Of a stretch of DNA of 64,000 nt, positions 1 through 64,000 are shown piece by piece (position 1 is the first letter of the stretch; each line of letters starts with the position of its first letter). The notes under the pieces are model-generated. The model saw nothing but the letters and a program-made list of their open reading frames with translations, did not search any database and was not told the origin of the DNA. The position numbers and the translations under genes were made by a program. Source of the DNA: an uncultured Clostridia bacterium (GTDB lineage: Bacteria > Bacillota > Clostridia > Christensenellales > Borkfalkiaceae); NCBI GenBank assembly GCA_947631465.1, contig CANRLK010000003.1:701-64700 (forward strand), in the 5' to 3' direction.

Positions 1-720
1 TTAGAATTGACACCCCCTCAGTCTCGCTTCGCTCGACAGCTCCCCCTGACAGGGGGAGCCAAGATGGGGGCGCGTTCACACTTTTGCCTTGCTGTCCCCT
101 TGGAGGGGTGGCGCAATGCGACAGGAGTGAGCGCATTGGAGGCGCGAACGGTGACCGAACACGGGGTTCTACCCGTGTGAGAAAGTGGCGCGCAAATGCG
201 CGCCAAAAGGGGTGTGGCGCAGACGAGCTTAAAAATAAGGAAACACCCCCTCAGTCTCGGCTTCGCCTCGACAGCTCCCCCTATTCCAGAGGGGGCGCCA
301 AGAAAGAGGAGAGGCGCTTCGCGTTGCCTTGCGGCGGTCGCCCCCGCCGTAAGGCCGCCTCGCCACCAGCTCGACTGGCGCATTGCAACTCACAGCCCAC
401 TGGGCTGTTGAGCAGAATTTGCAATGCTCCACCCCTATTTCAGAGGGGGAGTCAAGAAGGGGGCAGGGGATGCTTCTCCACCTTTGACAGGGGCAGCCAA
501 GTTGGGGGCGTTCACACTCTTGCCTTGCTGTCCCTTTCAGGGGAAAGTACCCGAGCAAAGCGAGGGGGAAAGGGGTACTTCGTAGACGAGCCTTGCACAT
601 AAGGAGACACCCCCTCAGTCACGCATAAATGCGTGACAGCGCCCCCTATTTCAGAGGGGGAGCCAAGTTGGGGGTGAGTACGCGCGCCACAGAAGGAATA
701 GCCAAGGACGTGCTCACCCA
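1..720. repeat. Array A of the nested-hairpin intergenic repeat family (continues off the left window edge)
   Basis: Core units lie at 9-70, 241-310 and 601-708. Each has the form AAGGAGACACCCCCTCAG / short GC hairpin / AGCTCCCCCT-N4-5-AGGGGGAGCCAAG-TGGGGG. Perfect palindromes occur at 186-205 (TGGCGCGCAaaTGCGCGCCA) and 618-637 (GTCACGCAtaaaTGCGTGAC). Degenerate 45-50 bp sub-units lie at 418-520. Every tracked ORF here (18-721) overlaps others on both strands, is G/P/R/A-rich and has no RBS. Confidence 0.8.
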
Positions 721-814
721 ATTTGCCGCTTGCGGCTTAATGCAAGAAAGGTTTTGCTTTTCTAAAAGTATAAAAGTTTCATGCAAGTTCTTTTGCTTTT
801 CATGCTTGAAAAGA

Positions 815-853
815 TGCAAAAAAGGTTCGGGATACTTGCGATGTGTTCCGAAC
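815..853 (-). terminator. Possible intrinsic terminator of the XRE gene
   Basis: On the minus strand the sequence reads GTTCGG...CCGAAC followed by CTTTTTTG. The stem is only 6 bp and the loop is large. Confidence 0.3.
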
Positions 854-923
854 TCAACAGCGATTTCTTTCGAGCGCTTGTGCCTTTATTTTTCTTCAAA
901 ATCCTCCCCATTTCGTGATCTTT

Positions 924-1139
924 TCAAGTCTCGTCTACCCCGAAGAGTTCGTTCGGCGTGATCTCATAGAGTTCGCAAAGCCGCATGATCTGCGCATAAT
1001 TCAATTCAAACACGCCGTTTTCAAACCGACTGTATTGCTGCTGCGTCATCATGAGCGTCGTCGCAACCTCTTTTTGCGTCAATTTCATTTCTTTTCTTGC
1101 ACGCTTTAAATTCTGCCCAACCACTTTTGCAAAATTCAT
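924..1139 (-). CDS. XRE-family helix-turn-helix transcriptional regulator (71 aa)
   Basis: The sequence LKRARKEMKLTQKEVATTLMMTQQQYSRFENG is a typical Cro/C1 HTH. The gene is divergent from the Cys-rich/JAB operon. TGGTATAAA lies 5 nt before the ATG, with no SD, so the mRNA is probably leaderless. Confidence 0.9.
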   Translation of the reverse strand: MNFAKVVGQNLKRARKEMKLTQKEVATTLMMTQQQYSRFENGVFELNYAQIMRLCELYEITPNELFGVDET

Positions 1140-1159
1140 AAAAAATTTATACCATAAAC

Positions 1160-1201
1160 TGATGTAAAATCGTTGACATACATCACATTATGATGTATAA
1201 T
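1160..1201. promoter_or_regulatory. Divergent promoter/operator region
   Basis: The + strand carries TTGACA (1173-1178), a 17-nt spacer and TATAAT (1196-1201). The spacer is filled by the palindrome TACATCA-cat ta-TGATGTA (1179-1197). A third half-site, TGATGTA, lies at 1160-1166 next to the xre start. Confidence 0.7.
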
Positions 1202-1248
1202 AAGATCGAATTTCGATCGAAATATAAAAAACAAAAGGAGAAACAATT

Positions 1249-1434
1249 ATGAAAAAACAAAACAACGAAAAGCAAGTAATCAAATTGCCCGAAGGGAAGT
1301 GCTGCACCTCTTATTGCGGCGACTGCTCTTATTTCAATCCCAGAAAGACATCGTATGGGAAATGCTATTGCGGATATTATAATAGTTATACGCGTACGGC
1401 GAGCGATAGCGCTTGCAGTCATTTTTCAAGGTAA
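1249..1434 (+). CDS. Small Cys/Tyr-rich protein (61 aa), unknown family
   Basis: The SD AAAAGGAGA lies 8 nt upstream of the ATG. The protein has 8 Cys, with the pattern CCTSYCGDCSYF..GKCYCGYY..ACSHF. Its stop codon abuts the start of the JAB gene directly. Confidence 0.6.
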   Translation: MKKQNNEKQVIKLPEGKCCTSYCGDCSYFNPRKTSYGKCYCGYYNSYTRTASDSACSHFSR

Positions 1435-1860
1435 GTGAAGATCTTATCGGGTGTTTATCGGGAAATGATCGACTTCTTTTCCCGCTCGCCCATTGAATCG
1501 GGCGGGATCTTCGGCGCTCAGAAAGGCGTGGTCTGTCGTTTTTGTTCCGACCGCCATGCCGTTCTTTCGGACGAGTATCGACCCAACGTCGAATTTCTCA
1601 ACCGAAAGATCGCCGAATGGGAAAAAGAAAAAATCTTGTTCATCGGAATGGCTCACAGTCATCCGAACGGGCTGCTGCGCCTGTCTTTGGAGGATATGCG
1701 TTACGCGAGAGAGATTATTTCCCGAAATCCGCACTTGAAAGAGCTGAAATTTGCGGTAGCGGCGTCCCGAAAGAACGCATTCCGACTCGCATTCTACGAC
1801 TGTATGCGGGAAGATAAGCGCGGGGAATTTCGGGCGTTGCGCCTCTATAAAATCTCTTGA
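1435..1860 (+). CDS. JAB/MPN (JAMM) metalloprotease domain protein (141 aa)
   Basis: The full JAMM signature is present: E in PIESGGIFG, then HSHPNG....SLEDM (HxH-x7-S-xx-D). The GTG start comes immediately after the TAA of the upstream ORF. Confidence 0.8.
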   Translation: MKILSGVYREMIDFFSRSPIESGGIFGAQKGVVCRFCSDRHAVLSDEYRPNVEFLNRKIAEWEKEKILFIGMAHSHPNGLLRLSLEDMRYAREIISRNPHLKELKFAVAASRKNAFRLAFYDCMREDKRGEFRALRLYKIS

Positions 1861-1887
1861 TTTCGGACTTATCAATATCACTTAATG

Positions 1888-1923
1888 GTTTGAGGCACGA
1901 TCGCTGTGTCTCAAACTTTTTTT
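1888..1923 (+). terminator. Intrinsic terminator of the Cys-rich/JAB operon
   Basis: GTTTGAGGCAC-loop-GTGTCTCAAAC forms an 11-bp stem with one G-U pair. It is followed by TTTTTTT. Confidence 0.8.
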
Positions 1924-1934
1924 GTCTATTCGCA

Positions 1935-2210
1935 TTTTAATAAGGAGACACCCCCTCAGGCGCTACGCGCCAGCTCCCCCTATTTCAGAGGGGGAGCCAA
2001 GAAGAAAGGAAGCGCTTTCGCGTTGCAATGCTCCACCCCTATTCCAGAGGGGGAGCCAAGTTGGGGGGCGCGCTGCAATGCTTCCCCTTTGAGGGGGCGC
2101 CAAGATTGGGGGCTGGGTATTTCGCTCTCCCCCAAGGGGCAGCCAAGATGGGGGGCGCGTTGCAATGCTTTACCTCTCAAAGGGGAGAGATGGGACTTCG
2201 CGCTCACTTC
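1935..2210. repeat. Array B of the hairpin repeat family
   Basis: A full core lies at 1942-2010. Four tandem degenerate units follow at 2026-2195, each of the form GCAATGCT / CCCCT-N-AGGGG / GCCAAG-TGGGGG. The overlapping ORFs 1906-2259, 1980-2207 and 2028-2213 are repeat artefacts. Confidence 0.8.
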
Positions 2211-2358
2211 TAACAGAAAAATTTCGCAATTTGCGACATTTTCAATGATTTTTGCGTAGACGCTCCCTCAAATCGCAAAAAATGTGTTATCATAAATTCG
2301 GATCAAGGGAGATCCATGGGACGCACTTCACAGATCAAACGGAGAAGGAGATTTTGCG

Positions 2359-2811
2359 TTGATGAAAGTCCGATTGCAATGTAACAAGGAAAAGCGGGAA
2401 GAGCTCGAACGCATGCTGCGCGCGGGCGGGTTCGAAGTCTCTTCCTCGGGCGAGCTCGTCCTCTATGAGGAAAACTTCGTTCTAAGCCGTATCCTTCTCA
2501 AAGACGAAAACGGCGGCTTCGAATGGGTCGATATGAACGAGATCGAAATGGTCGAAAGTTTCGATCATATCCTCCTCTTCTACGTCGGGTCGGAACGCTA
2601 TTCCCTGCGCGATCGGCTCTATGCCGTCGAGGAAAAACTCCCAAAGGATAAATTCGTCCGCATCAGCCAATCCTGTATCGTCAACCGCTTGGAGATCGTC
2701 AAGATCGTCCCCACCTTCGGCAGCCGCTATGACGTCACCATGCGCTGCGGCGTCAAAACTTGCGTCACCAAAAGCTATTTCTTGGATTTCAAAAAACGCT
2801 TCGGACTTTGA
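2359..2811 (+). CDS. LytTR-domain DNA-binding regulator (about 150 aa; ATG at 2362 is the likelier start)
   Basis: The C-terminal sequence KFVRISQSCIVNRLEIVKIVPTFGSRYDVTM is a LytTR signature. The SD GGAGAAGGAG lies at 2341-2350. The N-terminal region is short, with no obvious receiver Asp pocket. Confidence 0.8.
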   Translation: MMKVRLQCNKEKREELERMLRAGGFEVSSSGELVLYEENFVLSRILLKDENGGFEWVDMNEIEMVESFDHILLFYVGSERYSLRDRLYAVEEKLPKDKFVRISQSCIVNRLEIVKIVPTFGSRYDVTMRCGVKTCVTKSYFLDFKKRFGL

Positions 2812-2839
2812 GTCTTATCAAAAAATAGGAGGTATTTTT

Positions 2840-3820
2840 ATGGAATTGTTAATCTCTGAGATTTTATGGATCGTCTTGTCGGCATTCATCGTGGTCGGCG
2901 TCACGGTGCTCGTCTTATATCGAAAACTCCTGCCCTCGCTCTTGCTCTCGCGCGTCAAACAGAAAAAACGCCGCCTGCATCTTCCCGACTTTTCTACCGT
3001 CGTCACCGTCTTTGTCTTTCTCTTGATCGTGCTGGTGCTCCTTACCGCGCTGCAAATGAGCTACGAACGGTCGTATACCGTCGGCTGGTATGTTCCGACC
3101 GATTTCTTCCTGTTCAAGCGCAGACTTTACAGCATCGATACGCTCGCCTCACTTTTGATCATCAATTTCTTGGAAGCGGGTCTCTTTTACGTTTATGACT
3201 GTATCCTGTATAAGAGTTTCAAAAGAGTCGGATTCAGCTTTTTGCCGCTCAGTCTCTTTACGCTATTCGCCTACCTTATTTTTCAACAGATGAATGAGAT
3301 TTACATGTATTTATATGTGATCATGATCATCCTGCTTTTGCTCGCCAATATGATCGTGCCGCTTCTGAAAATCGTCACGGTCAAGCGGAGCAAGTGGGAG
3401 ACCGTGTTTCTTCTTTTCCGCGGGGTCTGGCGCACGGCGGCAATGTTCATGCTGGCATACTTTGCAGAGTCGATTTTCAATATGATCGATGATCAGCTTC
3501 TCCTGTATATGAGCTATTTCGCAGTCGTCTATATGATCGCCCTCATTTTCTCCTTGACGGACGCCGTCGTCAAGACCTTGAAGTTCTTCTCGGAGTTTGC
3601 AAGCGCGGAGCGCACGATCAAACGCCTCAATGACGTGCAAGAAGATCGAGTCGGATTGGAAGCGGTCTTTGAACTCGACGAGGAAGAGAGGATGGAACGG
3701 GCGGCGTTGGACGAGTCCATCATCGCGTTGAAGGACTATCCCCCGCGCTTCTTTATCCTGTACGATTGGATCTTGGCTTGGAGATTTCCCAAGACATTTG
3801 AGCTTTGGAAAAATCATTAA
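2840..3820 (+). CDS. Polytopic membrane protein (326 aa) with an acidic cytoplasmic tail, partner of the LytTR regulator
   Basis: AGGAGG at 2828-2833 precedes the ATG at 2840. There are about 7 hydrophobic segments, then an EDR-rich tail. The tracked ORF 2621-3820 is an upstream extension that overlaps the LytTR gene. Confidence 0.7.
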   Translation: MELLISEILWIVLSAFIVVGVTVLVLYRKLLPSLLLSRVKQKKRRLHLPDFSTVVTVFVFLLIVLVLLTALQMSYERSYTVGWYVPTDFFLFKRRLYSIDTLASLLIINFLEAGLFYVYDCILYKSFKRVGFSFLPLSLFTLFAYLIFQQMNEIYMYLYVIMIILLLLANMIVPLLKIVTVKRSKWETVFLLFRGVWRTAAMFMLAYFAESIFNMIDDQLLLYMSYFAVVYMIALIFSLTDAVVKTLKFFSEFASAERTIKRLNDVQEDRVGLEAVFELDEEERMERAALDESIIALKDYPPRFFILYDWILAWRFPKTFELWKNH

Positions 3821-3826
3821 AAAATC

Positions 3827-3855
3827 ACGGCGGACAATTCGTCCGCCGTATTTTA
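3827..3855 (+). terminator. Intrinsic terminator
   Basis: ACGGCGGAC-aattc-GTCCGCCGT is followed by ATTTTAC. Confidence 0.7.
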
Positions 3856-3894
3856 CAATATAAAAATTATGTCAAGGCTCGTTTGCGGCACACC

Positions 3895-4003
3895 CCTTGG
3901 CTATTCCTTCTGTGGCGCGCGCCGCGCCCTTACTCTTGGCTCCCCCTCTGGAATAGGGGGAGCTGGCACGCATTTATGCGTGACTGAGGGGGTGTCTCCT
4001 TTT
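3895..4003 (-). repeat. Single inverted copy of the hairpin repeat
   Basis: The reverse complement aligns with 601-708. The first 35 nt are identical and a 26-nt block (GCGCGCCACAGAAGGAATAGCCAAGG) is identical. A 14-nt centre is divergent. Confidence 0.85.
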
Positions 4004-4007
4004 GGTT

Positions 4008-4478
4008 TCAGTCGCCCGACTTCAAGGGGTTTTGGGCGGTAATCTTTTCGGCGATCTCGACAAAGTTCTTTGCGTCCGCCTCGCCGATGATGTCCACGAT
4101 CTGCCTTGCGATTTTGAGGGACTGGTCGTGCACCGTAAGGTATTCGGGCAAATTTTCTTTGACGATGCGCACAAAGGTCATGCGCTTGTCCGTGCCGCTG
4201 CAACGCTCCAAAAAGCCCTTCGCGGTGAGGGAATCGATCGTGCGGTTGACGAGAGATTTGAGCATTTTCGTCTCCCGTGTGATCTCTTTGAAGGAGATGA
4301 GCCCCTCTTCGTCCGAAAGATAGCGGCGATAGGCGAGCAGCATGACGGTCGCCTCGTTATAGTTCATGCCCTGCGTCATGCGCGTGTTTTTGAGCGTGCT
4401 CGTGAGTTTCACCCATGCCAAAATGAGTGCCTCGTCCAGCCCTTCCTTTAAGCCGCCGTTTTTGTCTTTTTCTTCCAT
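4008..4478 (-). CDS. MarR-family transcriptional regulator
   Basis: The winged-helix region is ISFKEITRETKMLKSLVNRTIDSLTAKGFLER. The SD GGGGGAGAAG lies upstream. Confidence 0.85.
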   Translation of the reverse strand: MEEKDKNGGLKEGLDEALILAWVKLTSTLKNTRMTQGMNYNEATVMLLAYRRYLSDEEGLISFKEITRETKMLKSLVNRTIDSLTAKGFLERCSGTDKRMTFVRIVKENLPEYLTVHDQSLKIARQIVDIIGEADAKNFVEIAEKITAQNPLKSGD

Positions 4479-4498
4479 GACTTCTCCCCCGATCGTGA

Positions 4499-4515
4499 TT
4501 ACAAAAGGATTGTAA
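4499..4515. promoter_or_regulatory. Candidate MarR operator palindrome
   Basis: TTACAA-aagga-TTGTAA lies in the marR upstream region. Confidence 0.35.
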
Positions 4516-4545
4516 CAAATTTTTTCCGTTCTGTCAAGAGTTCGA

Positions 4546-4574
4546 TTGCTTTTCCGCAGAAAACGCTGTATAAT
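4546..4574 (+). promoter_or_regulatory. Sigma-A-type promoter
   Basis: TTGCTT (4546-4551), a 17-nt spacer and TATAAT (4569-4574). Confidence 0.6.
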
Positions 4575-4605
4575 AGAGGAGTTCTCAACTTATCAACCTT
4601 TTTGC

Positions 4606-4624
4606 TGTGGATAACTGTGGATAA
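4606..4624. promoter_or_regulatory. Two tandem perfect DnaA boxes
   Basis: TGTGGATAA occurs at 4606-4614 and 4616-4624. It is the reverse complement of the consensus TTATCCACA. A weaker TTATCAACC lies at 4590-4598. Confidence 0.7.
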
Positions 4625-4646
4625 ACCCCCGAAGGAGTGGACAACC

Positions 4647-4853
4647 ATGTCGCAATATGACTTGATGAAGCTGTTCGAGCAGTTCGACGGCGAGATCTCG
4701 GAGTGCGATTTTACGGCAGAGGAGATGGAAGAGTATCTCCGATATTCAGACAGCCAAAAGGCGGGCGCGGAAGTTCCGCTTTCGCCCGCCCAATGGAAAA
4801 AACAATATTTCTCCTATTATGATGATGTGAAGGATAAATCCCTTAAAAACTAG
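4647..4853 (+). CDS. Small acidic hypothetical protein (68 aa)
   Basis: The SD GAAGGAG at 4631-4637 precedes the ATG at 4647. The tracked ORF 4602-4853 starts inside the DnaA boxes, so I prefer the shorter form. Confidence 0.55.
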   Translation: MSQYDLMKLFEQFDGEISECDFTAEEMEEYLRYSDSQKAGAEVPLSPAQWKKQYFSYYDDVKDKSLKN

Positions 4854-4864
4854 GATTGGTAACT

Positions 4865-5452
4865 TTACCGATCGGTTAGCAGTTGTTTCTTCCCGTCGAG
4901 GAAGGGGCTTGCGCCGCGCTTTCTCATGCGATATACGAAGAAGTAGAGGGGCGCGCCGAGCGCGTAGATCCAGATGGACTGCGAGACGAGGAGGGAGACG
5001 AAATTCCAGGTATAGGCGATGAGCGCGGTCTCGAATCCTTCCGTGAAGCCGCCGATGTAGACGATGACGACGGGGATGATGAGCGCGTTCAAAAGGACGG
5101 GAAAGAGCCCGCCGAGGGCAACGCGGAGGATATGGGCGAACTTGTTTTTCGAAGTTTCGCGGAGGAGCTTTCCGATGAGGAAGGTCAAGAAAGCGGCGAC
5201 GAGGGTGACGAGAGAGCCCAAAAAGATGTCTGCGACGCCGTACTGCGAGATGACGTTCGAGAGCATGCAGCCGACAAAAAGCGCGGGGATCGCTTCGACA
5301 TAGAACAGGGGGAGAATGCAGAGCGCTTCTGCGGGACGGAATTGGAAGAGCCCGACGAAGCTCATCATTCCGAAAGAACAAGTAAGCGCAACATACAGCG
5401 CGGCAATGATGCCCGCGCGGCAGATGCGCCTGACGGAAAACAGTTGTTTCAT
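4865..5452 (-). CDS. queT: Queuosine-precursor transporter QueT (ECF S-component-like)
   Basis: It is a 195-aa polytopic protein with a QueT-like N-terminus (AALYVALT...FQFRPAEAL..LP). A preQ1-type leader lies upstream. Confidence 0.75.
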   Translation of the reverse strand: MKQLFSVRRICRAGIIAALYVALTCSFGMMSFVGLFQFRPAEALCILPLFYVEAIPALFVGCMLSNVISQYGVADIFLGSLVTLVAAFLTFLIGKLLRETSKNKFAHILRVALGGLFPVLLNALIIPVVIVYIGGFTEGFETALIAYTWNFVSLLVSQSIWIYALGAPLYFFVYRMRKRGASPFLDGKKQLLTDR

Positions 5453-54529: not shown

Positions 54530-54830
54530 TGAAATAAGGTGGGCGCAATGCGCTTTTTATGCCACCCCTTTCGGCGCAAAGCAACGCGCCACTTTCCCCT
54601 CAAAGGGGACAGCAAGGAGAGCCGTAATGCTCATCCCACCCCCCTTGGCTCCCCCTTTGAGGGGGAGCTGGCGCGAAGCGCCTGAGGGGGTGTCATTACA
54701 AATCAACGGCGCGAAGCAGAATCGCCATTCTGCATTGCGCTTGCAGCGGGGGCGACCGCCGCAAGGCTAAGCGAAACGCCTGAGGAGGTGTTGCCTTATC
54801 ATCTTGGCTTCCCCTCGGACGCTGTGGAAG
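54530..54830. repeat. Array D of the hairpin repeat family (inverted orientation)
   Basis: At 54639-54694 the reverse complement matches the core, including the hairpin GGCGCgaaGCGCC. At 54540-54620 the reverse complement matches the CCTTGCTGTCCCCT..AGGGG..TGGCGCG module seen at 87-205. A degenerate core lies at 54770-54800. Confidence 0.8.
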
Positions 54831-54926
54831 GCGTGTTCAGTCACAACAATAACCGCATTTTTGCACTCATTTTCAATAAAATAAACAAAATCTCAAATCT
54901 TTCCATTTAAGGAAAAATATTTCTCA

Positions 54927-54958: not shown

Positions 54959-55098
54959 GTCTTTTCTGCCACGAAATATGGGGTCGAATTATGATAAATA
55001 CCCCAATATTATGAGTTTCGTGACGATTTTGTGAAAAGTATAAGGATTTTTTATGAAGCGTTTAAGAAAAAGTTATGATATTTTCTTTTGAAGAAGTA

Positions 55099-55128
55099 TT
55101 GACAGAAAGGCCCGAAATGACTTATAAT
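55099..55128 (+). promoter_or_regulatory. Promoter of the giant lipoprotein gene
   Basis: TTGACA (55099-55104), an 18-nt spacer and TATAAT (55123-55128). The surrounding sequence is AT-rich. Confidence 0.65.
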
Positions 55129-55158
55129 AAAGAAAATATTAAAGTGAAGGAGTGTAAT

Positions 55159-58100
55159 ATGAAACGGAAAGTATGGATTACATTGCTACTTGTCCTTACA
55201 GCCGCTCTCGGCTTGGTAGCATTTACTTCATGCAAACCCAAAGACAACCCCGTCAATGTCACTGACATTGAAGGTGCAGAGTCCGGGACTTATTACTTCG
55301 ATGTTTCGAGCGAAGAAGAGTATGATCTATCGCTCAGCAACGGGAATAAGTTCACTTTGCTCATGCGGGATGTCACCCGAGCTGGCGAATACACGCTGGA
55401 CGGGGAAAAGCTCACGCTCAATTTCAGCGAGCCGTACACCCAAACGGTGGAAGCGACTTACCGAAATGGCGAGATCACGCTTACATATAACAATCTCACG
55501 ATGAGATTCATCAAGAAGATCTACTTCACCGTCAGCTTCGATACGCATGGCGGCAGTAGCGTCTCTTCGATAAGTGTGGTCAACGGCAGATCGATCGGCA
55601 AGGTCACCGATCCCGAAAGAGAAGGATACACGTTCCTCGGCTGGTACACGGACGAGGCTTATTCGACGTCTTTCGCATTCGATTCGCAGCCTGTCACGGG
55701 GGACATCACCCTGCATGCGCGTTGGCAGGCAGCGGCTGCGGGCGCGGGCTTCAAGGTCAGCTTCGACTTGAACTACGACAATGCTCCCACCCTTGACCCT
55801 GTCACGACGGTCGGCGGCAAGATCCTCGATCTTCAAGACCCGAGACGCGAGGGCTTCCTCTTCGCGGGCTGGTATGTCAGCCAATACGGCAGCAAGGATC
55901 AGCTCTCCTATGCGGTCGATTCGAACACGGTGATCAAGGAAAACGTCACGCTCTATGCGACATGGGAAGAGCCCGGCAACAGCGGCAAGCTTCAAATGCC
56001 GCGCGTCGGCGTGACCGAGCAGGGACTTTCCTGGAACGCGGTCGGTGCGAACACCTACGTTATCACGGTGAAAGGTCCTGCGGGCTTTGTTGAAGTCAAC
56101 GAATCGACGACTTCGACGAGCTTCCCGATCGAGTTTGCGACCGCACCCGCGGGCGAGTATACCATTACCGTCCAAGGCACGGCGTCGAACACGGCGAACA
56201 ATTCGAACGTTGTCACGCTCCGCTACAAGAACAAGGCGCTTGCGCGCGTTTCCCTCTTCGAGGTCGTTTCGCCCGCAACCTTGCTCTTCAATGCCGTCGA
56301 TCATGCACGGGAATATCTCATTTCCATCGATTGCGGCAACAAGAAGCATGTACATACCGCAGTCAGCAACGGCAATTCCACCTATTATAACTTTGCGAAT
56401 TGCTCCATGCAGAAGGGCGGCATCAAGTTCCGCGTCACGGCGCGGGCAAACGGCTATGTCGAATCCGTCTCCGAGGAATTTGCCTATGAGCGGAATCTTG
56501 ACGCCGTAACGAACGTTCGCGTTGACGACAACCAGCTCCTTTCGTGGGATGCGGTCCAAGGCGCGACAAACTACATCTTGTCCATTACCTGCTCGAACGG
56601 CGCGCACGAACACAGCCGCGTCGACGTCGGCAATGCGACGAGTTACAGCCTCAAAGAATGCGGCAAGGGCGAAGTCAAAGTCACCATCACGGCGACGACG
56701 AAGGGCTACAATGCCGCAGATCCCGTCGAGTACAGCTACAATAAGGCGACGATCGCGTCTCCTTCGCACTTCCTTTTGAAGGGCACGACCCTTTCTTGGG
56801 ACGCCGTCGAGGGTGCATCGACCTATACGCTCCGCATTGCGGGCAAGACCTACACGACCGATAAGAATAGCTTTGATTTTGCTACGATTAAGGACATCTC
56901 GTGGTCGAGCGAGGAGGATTATCAAGCGAGCGTACAGGCGCTCACGGGCAACGATCCTTCGTCCAACTCGCTGTTCAGCGAGGGCGTTGACATGCGCTAT
57001 TACGCATTGTATTCGTCCCTTGACTACAACCGCAGCACGCTTTCTTGGCGGCACGTTATCGGCGTGACGAAATACGAAGTCAGCCTCAACGGCACTACGC
57101 TCGGCACTGTCGAAAACGGCGAAAACTTCTACAACATCAAGTTCACCAAAGCGGGCGAGAACACCCTTTCCGTTCGTTTCTTCGACGATGAATCGAACCT
57201 CGAAGGCTCCGATTGGGTCTCGATCGACGTGTTCGCCTACACCATCGAATTCGATACGCGCGGCGGCGGGGAAGTCGATTCGATCTATGTCGCATACGGC
57301 GACAAGCTCGAACTTCCGACGACCGAACGCCTCGGCTATGTGTTCGACGCTTGGTACAATGTTCCAGGCGGCGCAGAGAAGAACGGCGCGCCGTTTGACA
57401 GCGAGTACTATCTCGAAGCGACGGACATCCGTCTCTATGCAAGCTACGATTCCAAGGAATACACCGTCAAATACGTCTACGGCGACAGCCGCGACGAGGA
57501 ATCGAACCCTGCGAAGAAAGAGGGCAAGGTGCTCTACGGCAAGCAGTACACGCTCGATGTTCCCGCTGCACCCGACCAGACCGTCGTGTTCCTCGGCTGG
57601 TTCAGCAAGGCAGACGGCCGCGGCGTCCGTTATACGGATGAAAAGGGCAACAGCCTCCGCACGTGGGCGATCGCAGACAACGGCACGGAAGTCTTTGCTT
57701 ACTTTGCGAAGACTTTGAGCTACACGCTCGTGAATAACGAGTATTACAGTGTTTCGGCAGGTCCCGGTCTTGTTCTTTTGGACGAGGTCACGATCCCCAA
57801 GGAATATAATGACCTTCCCGTCAAGGCGATCCCCGGTTTTGCATTCCTCAATGCGACGACGTTGAAGAGGATTCACATCCCCGATTGCATCAACAATCTC
57901 AACCTTGACGCATTCAAGGGCTGCACGAAGATCGAAGAATTTGATATTTACGATGCAGGCACGGCGGCCTCGGACGTCATGTTCAGGTCGAACAGCGGCG
58001 TCATTTCCATCAAGGAAAACAATACTTGGACGCTTTACCTCTATCCCGTTGCGAGATCGGGCGATTTCATCATTCCCGATGACATCACCGCAATCGCGCC

Positions 58101-61100
58101 CGGGTTCTTCTCGGGCTCGCGGATCACGAAGCTCACCGTCCCCGCAGGGGTCAACGACGTTTCGTTGGAAACCTTCAAGGATTGCCTCTATTTGAGAGAA
58201 GTCGTCTTTGAAGATTCGTCGGAAGAAGGCGCAGAGCTTTCGATCTACACGGGTGCATTCACAAACTGCCCTGCGCTTCGCACGGTCACGTTCCCGAAGC
58301 AGCTCAAAACGTTCGGCGCAGTCAGCGGCGACGATCAGACGGGCGTCAACACAGGGAAAGCGGGCGTATTTGTCAACTGCAACCGTTTGGAGAATGTCTT
58401 GATGAGCGGCGCGGGCAACTACGGATTCACCGTTGTAGACGGCATGCTCATATATGAGCGCAACCTGATCTTCATCCCTGCGACGAAGGTCAGCGAGACC
58501 TTCACCGTTCCCTCGGGCATTACGGGGCTCGGCGACTACTTGTTCGAAAGAGCAGCGTATCCTTACAATGTAGAGATCCCCGCATGGGTCACCTACATCG
58601 GCAAGGACGCATTCCATGGCAACACAGGGCTTCAAACGGTCATCTTCAAGGCATCGTCGAGCGGTCTTGCGGCAAAGCTTGAAATCGGTGAAGAGGCATT
58701 CTTCAACTGCGCAGCTTTGACGGAGATGACGTTCGAAGACGGCTGCGGCGTTCAGACGCTTGGAAAGCGCGCGCTCTATCAGTGCGACGCGCTCACGGCG
58801 CTCGAACTTCCGAACTCGCTCGAAGTCGTTGAAGACGAGGCATTCGGCTCTTGCAACGCGCTTGCAAGCATTAAGTTCAGAGAAGGCAGCGCGAAGCTCG
58901 AAATCGGCATGAGCATTTTCACCGACTGCACGTCTCTTGCGAAGATCGAACTTCCTTCGAGCATTTCCAAGATCGAATACGGCTCGTTCGAAGGCGCAAA
59001 CACGAATGAGATCGAAATCGCGCCTGGCGGCAAGTACTACGTAAGTGAGAAAAACGTCGTCTACGGCTTGAAAGACGGCGATGGCCACACGAAATACGAC
59101 CTCGTTTACTATCCGAAGAACCTCGATATGAAGGGCATCGATCTTCCCGAGACGCTTGAAAAGATCGGCGCGTTCGTATTCAGAGGCAACACGCAATTGA
59201 CGGAGATCAAGATCCCCAAGAATGTCAATTGGATCGGTTGGGAGGCATTCAGCGGCGCGACCAACCTCAAGAAGGTCACCTTCGATGGCAAGGAAACGGT
59301 CGCAAAGATCGAGTTTGCGGTCGCGGAATATACGGATCGGTCAGGAAATGCCATCGAGATGAGCTATGCGTTCCGCAACTGCACGTCGCTCAGCGAACTT
59401 GCACTTCCCAATAGCTTGGAAGTGATCCCGGGCGGCTTCCTGTACATGGATGTAAAGGGCGCATCGTCGCTCAGCGAGTTCACGATTCCCGAATCGGTGA
59501 AGACGATCGGCAACCAGGCGTTCTATCACTCGAACATCGAGGCCGTTGATATTACGGCGAAGGTTGAAACGATCGGCGATGAGGCGTTCTATGACGGCAA
59601 CATCACGTCGTTGGTGTTCGCAGGCGAGTCCTCGAACGCACCCGGCAGCGGGGAGGAATTTGTTCCCGTGGGCGATGACGGTGTTGCAGGCGCGCTTCAA
59701 AGCATCGGCGACCGCGCATTCTATGCTGCAAAGATCACGGCTTTGGATCTTCCCGACAGCTTGACGAAGATCGGCAGCAGCGCATTCCAGAATACGAGAA
59801 TCAACCGCCTTACCCTCGGCAAGGGCGTTGAAGAGATCGGCGACAGCGCATTCCAGGGCTGCACGGCGCTCTACGCTGTGACGATCAGCTCCGACATCGA
59901 AAAGATGGGTAGCAACGTATTCGGAAGCTGCTCTTCGCTCATTCAAATGAACTTCGGTGACGGCGTGAAAGTCATCCCGTCAGGGCTTATCAGCTATGAA
60001 ATGGCAATCAGCAGAGTCCACATTGCGGCGTCCGTTGAGAGGATCGCGAGGGGCGCTTTGAGTTCGTATCGGATCACGCAGGTTGACATTGACGATAACA
60101 GCAGCTTAACAACGATCGAGGACGGCGCGTTTGGAAGCAAAAGCGAAATGGGTGGTGGTAGCGGCGCTGGCATCAGTACATTGAAAGTACCTGAAAAAGT
60201 CACGACCATCGGCAATTACGCATTCTCGAATTGTTCGAGTCTTAGAACCGTCACGCTCCCGCTGTCCTTGACGAGTATCGGCGACAGCGCATTCGAGAGT
60301 TGCTGGCAGCTTACAACTGTCAACTTCACGGGCGGCACGGAAGCGGCGGATGGTCTTACCCTCGGTTCGTATGTGTTCAAGAGCTGCAGTAGCCTTACTA
60401 CGATCACCCTTCCCAAGACGGTAAATGAGATCGGCGATAACCTTTTCGAGGAATCGGGCGTCACGAGTCTCACGTTCGCGGAAGGCAGCGACGGTCGTTT
60501 CCAAGTGGATAGCGGCATCGTTTATGACAAAGACAAGAAGACGCTCTACTTCGCGCTTCCTCAAACGTCGGGCAGCGTGCAGATCCCTGCCAGCGTCGAG
60601 TACATCAACGACCATGCCTTCACGGGTACGCAGGTCTCGACTGTCACGTTCGACAGCAATGGAAGCAATAGCGTCCTTCACATCGGCAGCAAGGCGACGA
60701 TCGAAGATAACGGTTCGTTCAAGGGCGACAGCGAGCACGGCGCGTTCCAGCAAGCATATAGCCTCAGCTCGGTCACTTTCCCGACGGGCCGCGAAGTTTG
60801 GATCGGCGGCTACGCATTCAGCAACAGCGGCCTTTCGACCGTAACACTTGGCGGGACCAAGCACATCGGTAATAACGCATTCCAGAGCTCGAGTTTGACG
60901 AAAATCGAGCTTCCCGAAGGGTTGGAAGATCTCGGCGACTATGCGCTTGCAAACCTCTCTTCTCTCAGCAGCGACGATGGCAAGCTTGAATTCCCTGCAA
61001 GCCTGAAAAAGCTTGGTAAGAATGTATTCGAATCCGCTAATTTTAAGAGTGTCAAGTTCGCCGAGAATGGCCAGTTGACTGTGATCAACGAGGGGGCATT

Positions 61101-64000
61101 CGCTACCGCATTCGGCAACTTGGGGTCTTCAACTCCAAAGGTCGACGAGATTGTGATCCCCGATTATGTCACGAGAATCGAAAAGGATGCATTCCATGGG
61201 GCAGCAGTCAAAAAGTTCGTGATCGGCAAGAATGTAGATGAGATCGGAGAAAGTGCATTCAATTACTGCCTTGCAACGGAAGAGATCGAGTTCGAGAAAG
61301 ATAACACCGCACTGAAAACGATCGGCGTGAGCGCATTCCGTGAGGCAAAGGGCATCAAGACGATTTCGAATGTTCCCAAGAGCGTGACGAAGATCGGCGA
61401 CAATGCATTCAGAGGCTGCTCTAAACTCGTAACGCTCGAGTTTGAAAAAGACGGCACGGATGCGCTTATCATCGGCGATCCGAATAGCACTGCGCAGAGC
61501 AAGTGGAATGTGTTTGAAGGCTGTACGTCCTTGACGGAAGTCGAGCTTCCTTCGCGCGTTACCACCATCACGCCGTACCTCTTCTCGGGCTGCACAAAGC
61601 TTCAAAAGGTGACTTTGCCCAATGCGCTCACCTTGATCCCCGAGTACACGTTCCTGAATTGCACTTCGCTTAAAGAAGTGGACTTCCCCGAAAACAGCGT
61701 GTTGACCGAGATCGGCGAACAGGCATTCATGAACAACAAGCTCACGAGCTTCAAACTTCCCAAGACCGTTACGAAGATCGGGTATCAGGCGTTCTACGGC
61801 TTCGGCGGTGATGGGCTCGAGTTCGAGATCGAAGTGGACGAAAAGACCAACAAGAGCGACCTTGAGACGATCGAAAAAGAGGCGTTTGCGAGTTCGAAGA
61901 TCCAGGAGTTTGACTTCTCCAAGACGAAGGTCAAGACTTTCGAATCGGGAACGTTTGCGGATTGCGCGCAGTTGAAGACGATCAATCTCGAAGGGCTCAA
62001 CTTTGTCCCGCAACAGGCATTCAGAAACTGCCAGCAGCTTTCCGAAATCACTTGGGGTACGACCATTACCTCCATTGAAAACGGTGCGTTCTGGAACTGC
62101 AAGGCGATCACGGAATTGGATCTTCCCGCACAGATCGAAGCCGTCGGCTCTTTCAGCAGCAGCGCACAGATGGAGAGCTACTACGGCGAGGGAAAGGAGC
62201 ACTATGTCGGCGCGTTCGAAATGACGGGCATCACGAGCGTTGACTTCTCGCATGCCGACGCACTCAAAACCATCGGCAGCGGCGCGTTCTACGGAACGCA
62301 GCTCGAAGGCGAAATCGAACTTTCCGATCACTTGGAGCGTCTTTGCCCCTTCGCGTTCGGGAACACGAAGATCACCAAGCTCGATCTTCCGTCCACGTTG
62401 CAAGCCGTAAGCTATCAGGTGACGAGCGGAACCGCTTATGTCTATATCTCAAACAGCACGTTGAGTATCCCGACCCTTGAAGAGATCAATATCAGAGAAG
62501 GGGAAGGCAGTTACTCCTCGATCGACGGCGTGCTCTATTATAGCAGCGCGAATAGCGATAGCAAAGTCCTTATGGTATGGCCTGTTGCAAAGGATGCGAC
62601 CCTCGACGAGACGGAAGTTAAGAAGTACTTCGATGGCGTCACGCAGGTCTACGACTACGCGTTCTATAAGAATGCGGGCCTTGAAGACAAGGAAGTCGAC
62701 CTTTCGGGTACGGAAGTCACGCGGTTCGGCACGAACTCCATTGCAGAAACGGGCGTGAAGAGCCTCAAGCTTCCCGGGGCGACCCTTAGCGAATATGCGT
62801 TTGCCAATAACACGAAGCTCGAAAAGGTTGAATTTGTCGACGGCGACGGAACGGAGACCTTCGCACAGAGTCCCTTCTCTGCGGACAACAGGAACATCGG
62901 CGGAGCGAGAAATAGCGGCTGCCCTGCATTGACGGAGATCAAACTTCCCGAAGATCTTACGGCGATCCCCGCTTCCTTCCTGAGCGGCACGAAGGTCGAG
63001 TCCATCGACGTTCCCGCAAATGTCACCTCGATCGGCAATTACGCATTTGCGATCGCATCGCTTACAAAAGTCAACTTTGCGAATGAAGAAGACAGACAGG
63101 AAGGCGCGCAGCTCGTATTGGGCAATTACGTCTTCCAGAACTCCTCGATCACGGAGATCACGCTTCCCGAGCGCACGACCTTCGCGATCAACAGCAGCAG
63201 CACCTACCCCTATGAAGGGAACGGCGTGTTCCAGGGCTGCAAGTCACTTACAAAAGTAACGCTCCCTGAGAGCATCCCTTACCTCAACGGCAACTTCTTT
63301 AAGGATTGCGAAAAGCTCACGACGATCGTTGGGCTTGAAAAGTTGGATCTCGATTGGATCGAGAACGGTGTGTTCGAGGGCTGCACTATGCTCGTAACGG
63401 GCAAGGAAAAGGCAGAAGGCGGAGAGAGCACAGAGGACGACGATTGGATGGTCCTCAACGTTGCAGAGTTGAAAGACGGCATTATAATCAGTAAGAACTC
63501 CATGTTCGCGAACTCGGGCATCAAGAAGTTGAAGTTCACTTCGAAGCTCACATTGATCGATTCTTACCAGCTCAGCGTGAATACCGCGCTCGAAGAAGTC
63601 GATATGAGCGCAGCGACCAATGTCCATATCAGCTGTGATATCTTCAACGGCGACTCGAATCTGAAATCCGTCAAATTCCCGAAGGGCGACGTCGAATGGG
63701 TAACGTTCCCGAGTCAGTCGACGATCGGCAGCGCGGCGAACCTCGAAACCGTCGAAATCGGCGCAAACGTCACGACCCTTCCCGACTACTTCACGGACGA
63801 AAACGGCACGCCGAAACTCAAAGAAGTAAAGATTCAAACGGGAGAAGGCGAGACTTCGCAGCTTCGTACCATCGGCGCGTATGCGCTCCAAGGCATGAGA
63901 GCGGAGGAGGGTATCGAAAGCTTCACCCTTCCCGCAACCGTTGAAACGCTCGGCGAAGGCGCGTTCAGCGGAAGCGCTATCAAGAAGATCGAGTTCGAAG
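55159..64000 (+). CDS. Giant surface lipoprotein, at least 2947 aa, 3'-truncated by the window: flg_new repeats, Fn3-like modules and a very long BspA-type LRR (LRR_5) region
   Basis: This ORF is not in the supplied track. The SD GAAGGAG at 55146-55152 precedes the ATG at 55159. I read every frame-1 codon from 55159 to 63999 and found no stop. It has a signal peptide with Cys (LVAFTSC). It contains GYTFLGWYTDEAY and GFLFAGWY, four LSW(D/N)AV.GA..Y modules, and dozens of units of the type IG..AF..C..L..(I/V). Confidence 0.93.
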   Translation, partial: MKRKVWITLLLVLTAALGLVAFTSCKPKDNPVNVTDIEGAESGTYYFDVSSEEEYDLSLSNGNKFTLLMRDVTRAGEYTLDGEKLTLNFSEPYTQTVEATYRNGEITLTYNNLTMRFIKKIYFTVSFDTHGGSSVSSISVVNGRSIGKVTDPEREGYTFLGWYTDEAYSTSFAFDSQPVTGDITLHARWQAAAAGAGFKVSFDLNYDNAPTLDPVTTVGGKILDLQDPRREGFLFAGWYVSQYGSKDQLSYAVDSNTVIKENVTLYATWEEPGNSGKLQMPRVGVTEQGLSWNAVGANTYVITVKGPAGFVEVNESTTSTSFPIEFATAPAGEYTITVQGTASNTANNSNVVTLRYKNKALARVSLFEVVSPATLLFNAVDHAREYLISIDCGNKKHVHTAVSNGNSTYYNFANCSMQKGGIKFRVTARANGYVESVSEEFAYERNLDAVTNVRVDDNQLLSWDAVQGATNYILSITCSNGAHEHSRVDVGNATSYSLKECGKGEVKVTITATTKGYNAADPVEYSYNKATIASPSHFLLKGTTLSWDAVEGASTYTLRIAGKTYTTDKNSFDFATIKDISWSSEEDYQASVQALTGNDPSSNSLFSEGVDMRYYALYSSLDYNRSTLSWRHVIGVTKYEVSLNGTTLGTVENGENFYNIKFTKAGENTLSVRFFDDESNLEGSDWVSIDVFAYTIEFDTRGGGEVDSIYVAYGDKLELPTTERLGYVFDAWYNVPGGAEKNGAPFDSEYYLEATDIRLYASYDSKEYTVKYVYGDSRDEESNPAKKEGKVLYGKQYTLDVPAAPDQTVVFLGWFSKADGRGVRYTDEKGNSLRTWAIADNGTEVFAYFAKTLSYTLVNNEYYSVSAGPGLVLLDEVTIPKEYNDLPVKAIPGFAFLNATTLKRIHIPDCINNLNLDAFKGCTKIEEFDIYDAGTAASDVMFRSNSGVISIKENNTWTLYLYPVARSGDFIIPDDITAIAPGFFSGSRITKLTVPAGVNDVSLETFKDCLYLREVVFEDSSEEGAELSIYTGAFTNCPALRTVTFPKQLKTFGAVSGDDQTGVNTGKAGVFVNCNRLENVLMSGAGNYGFTVVDGMLIYERNLIFIPATKVSETFTVPSGITGLGDYLFERAAYPYNVEIPAWVTYIGKDAFHGNTGLQTVIFKASSSGLAAKLEIGEEAFFNCAALTEMTFEDGCGVQTLGKRALYQCDALTALELPNSLEVVEDEAFGSCNALASIKFREGSAKLEIGMSIFTDCTSLAKIELPSSISKIEYGSFEGANTNEIEIAPGGKYYVSEKNVVYGLKDGDGHTKYDLVYYPKNLDMKGIDLPETLEKIGAFVFRGNTQLTEIKIPKNVNWIGWEAFSGATNLKKVTFDGKETVAKIEFAVAEYTDRSGNAIEMSYAFRNCTSLSELALPNSLEVIPGGFLYMDVKGASSLSEFTIPESVKTIGNQAFYHSNIEAVDITAKVETIGDEAFYDGNITSLVFAGESSNAPGSGEEFVPVGDDGVAGALQSIGDRAFYAAKITALDLPDSLTKIGSSAFQNTRINRLTLGKGVEEIGDSAFQGCTALYAVTISSDIEKMGSNVFGSCSSLIQMNFGDGVKVIPSGLISYEMAISRVHIAASVERIARGALSSYRITQVDIDDNSSLTTIEDGAFGSKSEMGGGSGAGISTLKVPEKVTTIGNYAFSNCSSLRTVTLPLSLTSIGDSAFESCWQLTTVNFTGGTEAADGLTLGSYVFKSCSSLTTITLPKTVNEIGDNLFEESGVTSLTFAEGSDGRFQVDSGIVYDKDKKTLYFALPQTSGSVQIPASVEYINDHAFTGTQVSTVTFDSNGSNSVLHIGSKATIEDNGSFKGDSEHGAFQQAYSLSSVTFPTGREVWIGGYAFSNSGLSTVTLGGTKHIGNNAFQSSSLTKIELPEGLEDLGDYALANLSSLSSDDGKLEFPASLKKLGKNVFESANFKSVKFAENGQLTVINEGAFATAFGNLGSSTPKVDEIVIPDYVTRIEKDAFHGAAVKKFVIGKNVDEIGESAFNYCLATEEIEFEKDNTALKTIGVSAFREAKGIKTISNVPKSVTKIGDNAFRGCSKLVTLEFEKDGTDALIIGDPNSTAQSKWNVFEGCTSLTEVELPSRVTTITPYLFSGCTKLQKVTLPNALTLIPEYTFLNCTSLKEVDFPENSVLTEIGEQAFMNNKLTSFKLPKTVTKIGYQAFYGFGGDGLEFEIEVDEKTNKSDLETIEKEAFASSKIQEFDFSKTKVKTFESGTFADCAQLKTINLEGLNFVPQQAFRNCQQLSEITWGTTITSIENGAFWNCKAITELDLPAQIEAVGSFSSSAQMESYYGEGKEHYVGAFEMTGITSVDFSHADALKTIGSGAFYGTQLEGEIELSDHLERLCPFAFGNTKITKLDLPSTLQAVSYQVTSGTAYVYISNSTLSIPTLEEINIREGEGSYSSIDGVLYYSSANSDSKVLMVWPVAKDATLDETEVKKYFDGVTQVYDYAFYKNAGLEDKEVDLSGTEVTRFGTNSIAETGVKSLKLPGATLSEYAFANNTKLEKVEFVDGDGTETFAQSPFSADNRNIGGARNSGCPALTEIKLPEDLTAIPASFLSGTKVESIDVPANVTSIGNYAFAIASLTKVNFANEEDRQEGAQLVLGNYVFQNSSITEITLPERTTFAINSSSTYPYEGNGVFQGCKSLTKVTLPESIPYLNGNFFKDCEKLTTIVGLEKLDLDWIENGVFEGCTMLVTGKEKAEGGESTEDDDWMVLNVAELKDGIIISKNSMFANSGIKKLKFTSKLTLIDSYQLSVNTALEEVDMSAATNVHISCDIFNGDSNLKSVKFPKGDVEWVTFPSQSTIGSAANLETVEIGANVTTLPDYFTDENGTPKLKEVKIQTGEGETSQLRTIGAYALQGMRAEEGIESFTLPATVETLGEGAFSGSAIKKIEFE

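Follow-up and report, generated by a model that had tools for sequence, protein, structure and literature searches.

A family of small non-coding palindromic repeats in intergenic arrays of an uncultured Clostridia bacterium

In this study, we identified a family of small palindromic repeats in a 64-kb stretch of DNA (64,000 nucleotides, hereafter the window) from an uncultured Clostridia bacterium (assembly GCA_947631465.1, contig CANRLK010000003.1, positions 701 to 64,700). The repeat unit, designated U, is present in six full copies together with approximately eight degenerate half-units, all located in four intergenic blocks at two loci (1-745, 1942-2195, 3867-4004, and 54540-54840), which we describe as elements E1 to E6 (Table 1). 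E4 lies between the terminator of a JAB gene and a LytTR gene, E5 starts 4 nt past the stop codon of a MarR gene and has the same orientation as that gene, and E6 is flanked by a DUF1893 gene on one side and by a giant BspA-type leucine-rich repeat (LRR) gene on the other. An earlier note, made from the sequence alone, had placed the arrays exactly between transcription units, which is true in this window. Pfam bore out its calls of the XRE, Prok-JAB (a weak match), LytTR, and MarR genes, and the coordinates that it gave for the copies, including the stacks at 418-520 and 2026-2195, were confirmed by reading the sequence and with nhmmer.

U spans 55-65 nt and reads (G)ACACCCCCTCAG, followed by the variable hairpin 1 and then by hairpin 2, CAGCTCCCCCT-loop-AGGGGGAGCCAAG; the shared core is approximately 45 nt. 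Across 88 aligned copies, the sequence of hairpin 1 (for example, GTCACGCAtaaaTGCGTGAC at 618-637) varies and its pairing is kept, with changes on both sides in five of seven pairs and 92% of the cells paired; sliding the partner columns lowers this share to 47-54%. CTCAG and CAGCT flank hairpin 1 without variation, and the GTC beside it pairs with GAC, the pairs 18-41, 19-40, and 20-39 being standard in 88, 82, and 86 of the 88 copies, respectively. The stems of U are 4-8 bp and the loops 3-9 nt.

A "second module" at 87-205, described in the earlier note as recurring in inverted form at 54540-54620, does recur there. It is not a separate module: the order of its parts on the other strand (CTTGCTGTCCCCT..AGGGG ... 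GCGCGC..GCGCGC ... AAAGGGGTGT) is that of U, and this order identifies it as an inverted U that has diverged. A complete element therefore consists of U and such an inverted, diverged partner, and this inverted doublet has ACACCCC and GGGGTGT as its closing ends. These outer ends pair and enclose three to six local hairpins in a cloverleaf-like nested fold. The minimum free energy fold of 1-236 closes 10-16 with 209-215 (z = -4.8), and the remaining folded blocks gave z-scores of -4.0 (E2, in which ACACCCC closes the structure), -3.5 (E4), and -3.9 (E5). Folding recovered the nested hairpins noticed earlier, at z-scores between -3.5 and -4.8. In each of the 11 elements that have an exact GGGGTGT partner, the fold is closed. 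Related genomes contain compact doublets of 106-111 nt, and compact elements there span 106-220 nt overall. The elements are mosaics because other short hairpin modules are spliced in.

In the window, an nhmmer profile built from the 88 copies gave six matches of 42-57 bits, and blastn against related loci confined the repeat DNA to 8-745, 1946-2060 and onward, 3934-3995, and 54641-54697. The constituent motifs exceed expectation from shuffled sequences by a wide margin: six occurrences of CCCCCT-N3-9-AGGGGG (0.01 expected) and, with up to three mismatches, eight of AGGGGGAGCCAAGNTGGGGG (0.02 expected) and five of AAGGAGACACCCCCTCAG (0.04 expected). Degenerate half-units of 44-59 nt (families D1, D2, and D5) are stacked at 418-520 and 2023-2195. 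The segments 598-707 and 3895-4004 form an inverted pair with 94-100% complementarity (I1, 70 nt, 94%; I5, 27 nt, 100%). The GC content of the repeats themselves is 60-61%. As previously noted, spacing follows no constant period (Tandem Repeats Finder returned nothing there), and no credible open reading frame (ORF) is present, only overlapping ORFs without a family in all frames.

Table 1 Repeat elements and gene units at the two loci of the window. Match limits are those of the nhmmer profile.
Feature	Position	Strand	Description
E1, inverted doublet	1-236	+	U 5-70; diverged inverted partner with extra inserted hairpins 84-217; tail GGCGCAGACGAGCTTAAAAAT
E1 closing stem	10-16 with 209-215		ACACCCC with GGGGTGT; nhmmer 5-63, 56.5 bits; left edge possibly cut by the window start
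E2	237-600	+	U 237-310; GC hairpins 311-417; half-units 418-463 and 464-508
E2 right part	509-600		diverged inverted partner and tail ..AAAGGGGTACTTCGTAGACGAGCCTTGCACAT; nhmmer 240-302, 45 bits; D1, D2, D6, D7
E3	598-745	+	U 601-674 and tail 675-707 (full unit 601-707), together the left arm of the 110-nt inverted pair; nhmmer 604-667
E3 extra module, GCTCACCCAATTTGCCGCTTGCGGCTTAATGCAA	~712-745		also in L061, L008, and L024; blastn coverage 725-745
XRE	924-1139	-	Pfam
Cys-rich protein, 61 aa	1249-1434	+	
JAB/MPN-like	1435-1860	+	weak Prok-JAB match (Pfam)
Terminator of JAB unit	1887-1917		
E4 array	1942-2195	+	U 1942-2010, then four half-units of 40-46 nt (~2023-2068, 2073-2112, 2113-2155, 2156-2195); nhmmer 1945-2001
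LytTR-domain protein	2359-2811	+	Pfam
Membrane protein, 326 aa	2840-3820	+	
Bidirectional terminator	3826-3850		
E5	3867-4004	-	right arm of the 110-nt inverted pair (full unit 3895-4004); nhmmer 3935-3998, 49 bits
E5 canonical right end, GGGGTGTGCCGCAAACGAGCCTTGACATAA	3896-3867	-	
E6	54540-54840	-	U 54637-54699; nhmmer 54644-54698, 54 bits; diverged inverted partner 54540-54620
E6 degenerate U-like head, TAAGGCAACACCTCCTCAG	54780-54797	-	

U occurs widely, in genomes both close to and distant from this one. When one genome per species was scanned with the pattern ACACCCCCTCAG-N12-40-CCCCCT-N3-9-AGGGGG, at least 82 stretches were returned, and a profile search returned 175 copies in 84 sources. 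Most of the listed stretches came from at least 14 species-level "uncultured Clostridia" metagenome-assembled genomes (MAGs) from the rabbit gut, with at least 31 from CANRDK01 alone, and the subfamily of E2 is also present in a MAG locus (L040). Among the matches listed, 13 contigs belong to the Rhodothermus MAG JALSJJ01, in which U forms direct arrays with a period of 210-225 nt, and single stretches came from the isolates Bifidobacterium stellenboschense and B. catulorum and from a Phenylobacterium MAG; doublets are also present in Bifidobacterium and Phenylobacterium. All of these hosts also show features that lie outside the search pattern (hairpin 1, CAGCT before and AGC after hairpin 2), and the profile finds further inexact copies beside the pattern matches there. 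Therefore, the resemblance across hosts is no artefact of the pattern. Chloroherpeton, Flavipsychrobacter, and Microcoleus, with one match each and no U architecture, were set aside.

Other collections were negative. The U pattern had no match in 2.9 million viral contigs, and blastn of a 115-nt element against 72,556 plasmids found none. A metagenome scan with the window-specific head AAGGAGACACCCCCTCAG gave seven matches, all by chance in coding DNA, and a search with a peptide profile of the spurious ORFs that cross U (GSPxEGELS..TEGV), aimed at host mapping, gave just 14 and was uninformative. Rfam 15 had no match at the gathering threshold in the window and 13 related loci, and chance-level ones alone at E up to 10, which leaves standing the earlier description of an unclassified non-coding nested-hairpin repeat family, a family that is genuine. 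Literature searches with the sequence strings returned unrelated primers alone.

Several side features accompany U. The head of the window subfamily contains a perfect Shine-Dalgarno (SD)-like AAGGAG, located 2 nt ahead of the C-run and with no start codon after it, at 601-618, 1942-1959, 3984-4001 (-), and 54780-54797 (-). The degenerate copy at 54780 reads CACCTCCT, which we take to be identical to the anti-SD core of 16S rRNA. In the MAG CANRDK01, the modules GCGCTCATCCTGAGCGTAGCGAAGGATCCCATTAAACCAACGGAGCACATTTGGAATG and CATGCCCCCTCCnnnnGGAGGGGGTAGGGGGGTGGGCAAC stand beside U (L004, L007, L031, L037, L078, and others), and AT-rich runs, (AATTAAAAATT)n-GTGGTGGGGCATATTTAGAATG, also accompany it, often as inverted outer ends. 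The Rhodothermus arrays (L053:1840-2760, L014:4095-4781, L028, L076, and L060) sit at contig ends; in them, U alternates with a hairpin and G-run module, GTCCCCCCTCCCC-n4-GGGGAGGGGGAC-AGGGGGAGGGGC, with variable stretches of 50-80 nt in between. The four G-tracts of this module could in principle form a quadruplex.

The position of the copies relative to genes was counted with a crude GC3-based gene caller, and the following numbers are therefore approximate. In the Clostridia loci, 83 of 85 strong copies (98%) are intergenic. Copies occupy 16 of 48 convergent spacers (33%), 29 of 152 co-directional spacers (19%), and 5 of 48 divergent spacers (10%); the difference between convergent and divergent spacers (p = 0.012) shows that copies favour gene 3' ends. 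Orientation is not biased, since the upstream gene lies on the same strand as the copy in 40 cases and on the opposite strand in 30 (17 versus 19 in co-directional spacers). Mismatched pairs comprise 12 G:T and 18 A:C, with no G:T excess. The intergenic site, 3'-end preference, random orientation, and lack of G:T excess agree with a palindrome at the level of DNA whose presence at gene ends is tolerated, and not with an oriented RNA element.

Metagenome contigs of the same species are 99.8-100% identical to the window, and most of them end inside E4 or E5 (L084 and L087 inside E4). In contig L086, the LytTR-side end of E4 (L086:3106-3222 versus window 2088-2204) is swapped for different half-units of like type, and the flank is 99.8% identical to the window from 2205 onward, over 3.1 kb. 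Since the half-units differ while the flanks match, the arrays turn over faster than their flanks. Near-identical copies are also found at separate sites, as with 598-707 and 3895-4004 in the window and with copies lying kilobases apart in L047 and L030. E5 is unchanged in four same-species contigs, all of which have an identical MarR-E5-membrane junction. Of the strain variation to which the earlier note had looked, array polymorphism was found at E4, and inversion or excision variants were absent from the MarR-E5-membrane junction in these four contigs. Contig L085 matches window 1617-5005 without indels, and its terminal 16 nt (L085:3390-3405 in reverse complement, which is the start of the contig, versus window 1601-1616) mismatch inside the JAB gene at a GAAAAAGAAAAAA run, which reflects an assembly artefact or else another junction.

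The two gene units between the arrays are compositionally distinct. Their GC contents are 42.8% (XRE/Cys/JAB) and 47.7% (LytTR/membrane), versus 55.6 +/- 2.5% in the rest of the window (1.2-kb windows), in agreement with the previous claim that they are more AT-rich than the backbone; the two hand counts behind that claim (40% and 65% GC) were exact. Each unit had also been credited with its own promoter and terminator. Upstream of both the Cys-rich/JAB genes and MarR there are strong promoter-like sites, and the JAB and membrane genes are followed by terminator-like hairpins, but the LytTR unit has no strong promoter match. PADLOC and NCBIfam searches with the proteins of these units found nothing beyond XRE, the weak JAB match, and LytTR. 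The XRE gene, a Cys-rich protein of 61-64 aa (CC..C..C..C.C..C), and the JAB/MPN-like gene form a conserved three-gene unit that is rare, with five homologs found, and that could be assigned to no known family or defence system. In L103:196-1131, this unit is 93% identical, and what adjoins XRE directly on the left is a 5S rRNA gene with a terminator instead of an array; the match with the window starts at ~911, within ~15 nt of the XRE stop codon. A 54%-identical unit in L099:120-1090 has no repeats at all. In view of these two loci, the gene unit is probably mobile or acquired, but its link with the arrays is not conserved. The LytTR/membrane arrangement is conserved in the same-species contigs. 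An ORF at 4602-4853, between MarR and QueT, is kept in all same-species contigs (68 aa there) and has no family match. Another ORF (55075-63999, at least 2975 aa), which runs off the window, starts ~240 nt from E6 and contains 14 BspA-type LRR stretches and Listeria-Bacteroides repeats.

[quoted passage not shown] As far as our searches go, the family is so far without a name, and it is ordinary in kind. Spread of the units would take place at the DNA level, probably at moments when single-stranded DNA folds into hairpins. The mobilising enzyme would be encoded elsewhere; the leading candidate, as with REPs, is a transposase of the HUH/Y1 type, of which the window and ~600 kb of loci around the copies yielded no example. 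The arrays may grow and shrink locally through slippage or unequal recombination between units, and any effects on flanking genes, such as a block of read-through or protection of mRNA ends, would be incidental. That arrays surround the two low-GC gene units would reflect insertion tolerance, and possibly recombination at the repeats, rather than a cassette system.

Several observations weigh against this account. Pfam found no transposase, integrase, or recombinase among the 47 window proteins, and no ORF family recurs near the copies in ~600 kb of loci around 175 copies; clustering of ORFs over 82 loci yielded just surface proteins, spurious repeat ORFs, and scattered orthologs. A phmmer search with IS200 TnpA and E. 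coli RayT, both as approximate queries, gave no match. The doublet is not universal: of 72 units, just 11 have an exact GGGGTGT partner in the 330 nt downstream (two have one upstream). A ~45-nt unit that is nearly identical in four phyla is more strongly conserved than selfish repeats usually are, which hints at a constraint. Furthermore, neither a clean empty site nor a target-site duplication could be identified, and the junction in Bifidobacterium is ambiguous. There, the reading frame of an RluA-type pseudouridine synthase gene runs through a symmetric U doublet (L038:2125-2239; B. stellenboschense NZ_JGZP01000015), and the 289-aa NCBI product includes the repeat-encoded GHPLSRPTDDSSPSKGERQGGRACSPCEGELAAEPTEGV. 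The B. parmae ortholog (252 aa) is without ~111 nt at the doublet site, and orthologs of 232-346 aa differ exactly at the hypervariable loop that bears the doublet. GAGCTGG is present on both sides of the junction and an end-like remnant in B. parmae, and no target duplication is readable. Because no enzyme was found and this junction is ambiguous, the movement of U and its mode are what we infer.

Among known systems, REP/BIME elements of enterobacteria and pseudomonads, whose REPIN doublets are mobilised by REP-associated tyrosine transposases (RAYTs), come closest. They share with U short GC-rich imperfect palindromes in tens to hundreds of copies, nearly all intergenic and 3'-end enriched, as well as inverted doublets, mosaic clusters, and strain variation. 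U differs in having two hairpins and a conserved 5' C-run rather than one hairpin, and its direct tandem arrays are common, whereas BIMEs alternate in orientation. Neither the window nor ~600 kb around the copies yielded a RAYT gene, and word searches for RAYT or REPIN in Firmicutes and Bifidobacterium returned nothing relevant. A survey of REPs distinguished GTAG- and CGTC-tagged superfamilies in eight phyla, with Firmicutes and Actinobacteria not listed, and described head-to-head dimers, clusters, and in-frame intragenic copies, including some in pseudouridine synthase genes (PMC3733652). The hosts of U include Bacillota and Actinomycetota, which differ from those listed for tagged REPs in that 2013 survey (PMC3733652), and neither GTAG nor CTAC flanks hairpin 1 in the 88 aligned units. 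The survey detected no dedicated transposase for REPs of the CGTC type (Di Nocera et al. 2013, PMC3733652). Like U, they represent one sequence class in distant phyla, form head-to-head dimers, and occasionally occur in frame within genes, pseudouridine synthase among them. They are defined by a CGTC/TGTC tag that stays unpaired, a stem of 8-9 bp whose first pairs are A/T, a loop of 4-5 nt, and a CCA tail (PMC3733652). In contrast, the TGTC/CAGTC beside hairpin 1 of U is base-paired (GTC with GAC), its stems and loops span 4-8 bp and 3-9 nt, its flanks are CTCAG/CAGCT, and it has no CCA tail. We take U to work like a REP/BIME element and yet, as it carries neither the GTAG nor the CGTC tag, to belong to neither tagged superfamily.

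These comparisons also bring in a bolder proposal, which we hold as a tentative possibility: U may represent a third cross-phylum superfamily, "CTCAG-tagged" and with two hairpins, whose strict core conservation would stem from its recognition by horizontally shared machinery, and the arrays may be hot spots that lodge foreign gene units. Its hosts would be Bacillota, Actinomycetota, Rhodothermota, and Alphaproteobacteria, and the machinery would be either a mobilising enzyme acting in trans or a host factor that binds nucleic acids.

A family of structured non-coding RNAs or cis-acting RNAs with a host function (small RNA genes, 3'-end stabilisers, insulators, or hairpins that sequester SD/anti-SD-like sequences) appears unlikely. 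The strong, covarying structure, the preference for gene 3' ends, and the core conserved across phyla are what such a family would lead one to expect, as are the AAGGAG head of the window subfamily, the one copy that reads CACCTCCT, and the T-rich tail after hairpin 2 in Rhodothermus. However, the copies show neither an orientation bias relative to the flanking genes nor an excess of G:U over A:C; the arrays contain no promoter-like sites and come after canonical terminators. Many copies are truncated, mosaic, or in tandem, arrays differ between near-identical strains, one copy is inside a coding region (Bifidobacterium), and Rfam has no match.

The notion that the arrays separate gene cassettes, put forward in the earlier note, is true here as a description and is unsupported as a mechanism. 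As an explanation, it would make the repeats sites of cassette recombination (attC-like or pdif-like), or make the 110-nt inverted copies the ends of a composite MITE-flanked transposon that carries the genes from XRE to the membrane protein; we consider either to be quite improbable. The two gene units are indeed compositionally foreign, the 94-100% identical inverted pair brackets a 3.2-kb segment with its "head" ends outward, and XRE/Cys/JAB is a discrete module, 93% identical in L103, where it lies beside a 5S rRNA gene. As in integron cassette arrays with their attC sites, imperfect palindromes stand between discrete gene units. Yet the 64-kb window encodes no integrase (47 proteins), recombinase, or transposase, and a reading of the units revealed no attC-like core (GTTRRRY/RYYYAAC; R'/R'' sites) and no 28-bp dif-like core. 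Integron cassettes are promoterless and co-oriented, whereas the gene units here have their own promoter-like sites or terminators and are of mixed orientation, XRE being on the opposite strand. The module occurs without arrays in L103 (left side) and L099. In relatives, inverted U pairs bracket housekeeping genes, namely those for glutamine synthetase III, pyruvate kinase, UDG, LuxS, nucleoside phosphorylase, and GyrB, and the shared MarR-E5-membrane junction of the four same-species contigs shows no inversion or excision.

A classical DDE-type MITE, that is, an internally deleted insertion sequence (IS) with terminal inverted repeats, moved by the transposase of a parent IS and leaving target-site duplications, is very improbable. 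Many rabbit-gut elements do have long outer inverted ends ((AATTAAAAATT)n-GTGGTGGGGCATATTTAGAATG joined to ACACCCC, and GGGGTGT joined to CATTC..CCACCACAATTTTTAATT), and the compact length of 106-220 nt would suit a MITE. These outer modules are, however, optional and often one-sided, the composition is mosaic and the length highly variable, no duplication is definable at any junction, and neither a parent IS nor a transposase was found in the window or in ~600 kb of sampled loci; head-to-tail tandem arrays and half-units are also atypical.

BOX elements of Streptococcus pneumoniae and Correia/NEMIS elements of Neisseria are likewise small intergenic repeats with modular structure or inverted ends and stable hairpins, and they have no known dedicated transposase. 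The modules of BOX follow a fixed A-B-C order, and the ends of Correia elements are 26 bp long, with a TA duplication; compared at the level of architecture, U shows neither feature, and no similarity is evident. Rickettsia palindromic elements resemble the B. stellenboschense case, a palindromic repeat in frame within a gene and annotated as protein. They differ in host biology and in that copies of U in the window and the Clostridia MAGs are intergenic (83 of 85); in this comparison, again at the level of architecture, no sequence relation was found.

Simpler candidates were rejected: a CRISPR array (irregular spacings of 44-1341 nt, degenerate repeats, no spacers, Tandem Repeats Finder silent), intrinsic terminators (the Clostridia copies lack a U-tract, units point both ways, and arrays lie beyond the real terminators), fragments of tRNA, rRNA, or tmRNA (no resemblance, no Rfam match), and coding sequence (frames open or closed haphazardly).

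The repeats matter in practice for the genomes that carry them. They break short-read assemblies, as seen in the same-species contigs that end inside arrays, and they create spurious ORFs and can be annotated as protein when they lie inside genes, as in the Bifidobacterium pseudouridine synthase. The array differences between 99.8%-identical strains could serve as typing markers for this uncultured gut lineage. Two points stand out in the biology of the family: the strictly conserved two-hairpin core across four phyla and the lack of a visible moving enzyme. A ~45-nt core shared by four phyla without a visible transposase provides a Gram-positive case for how transposase-less palindromic repeats spread and persist.

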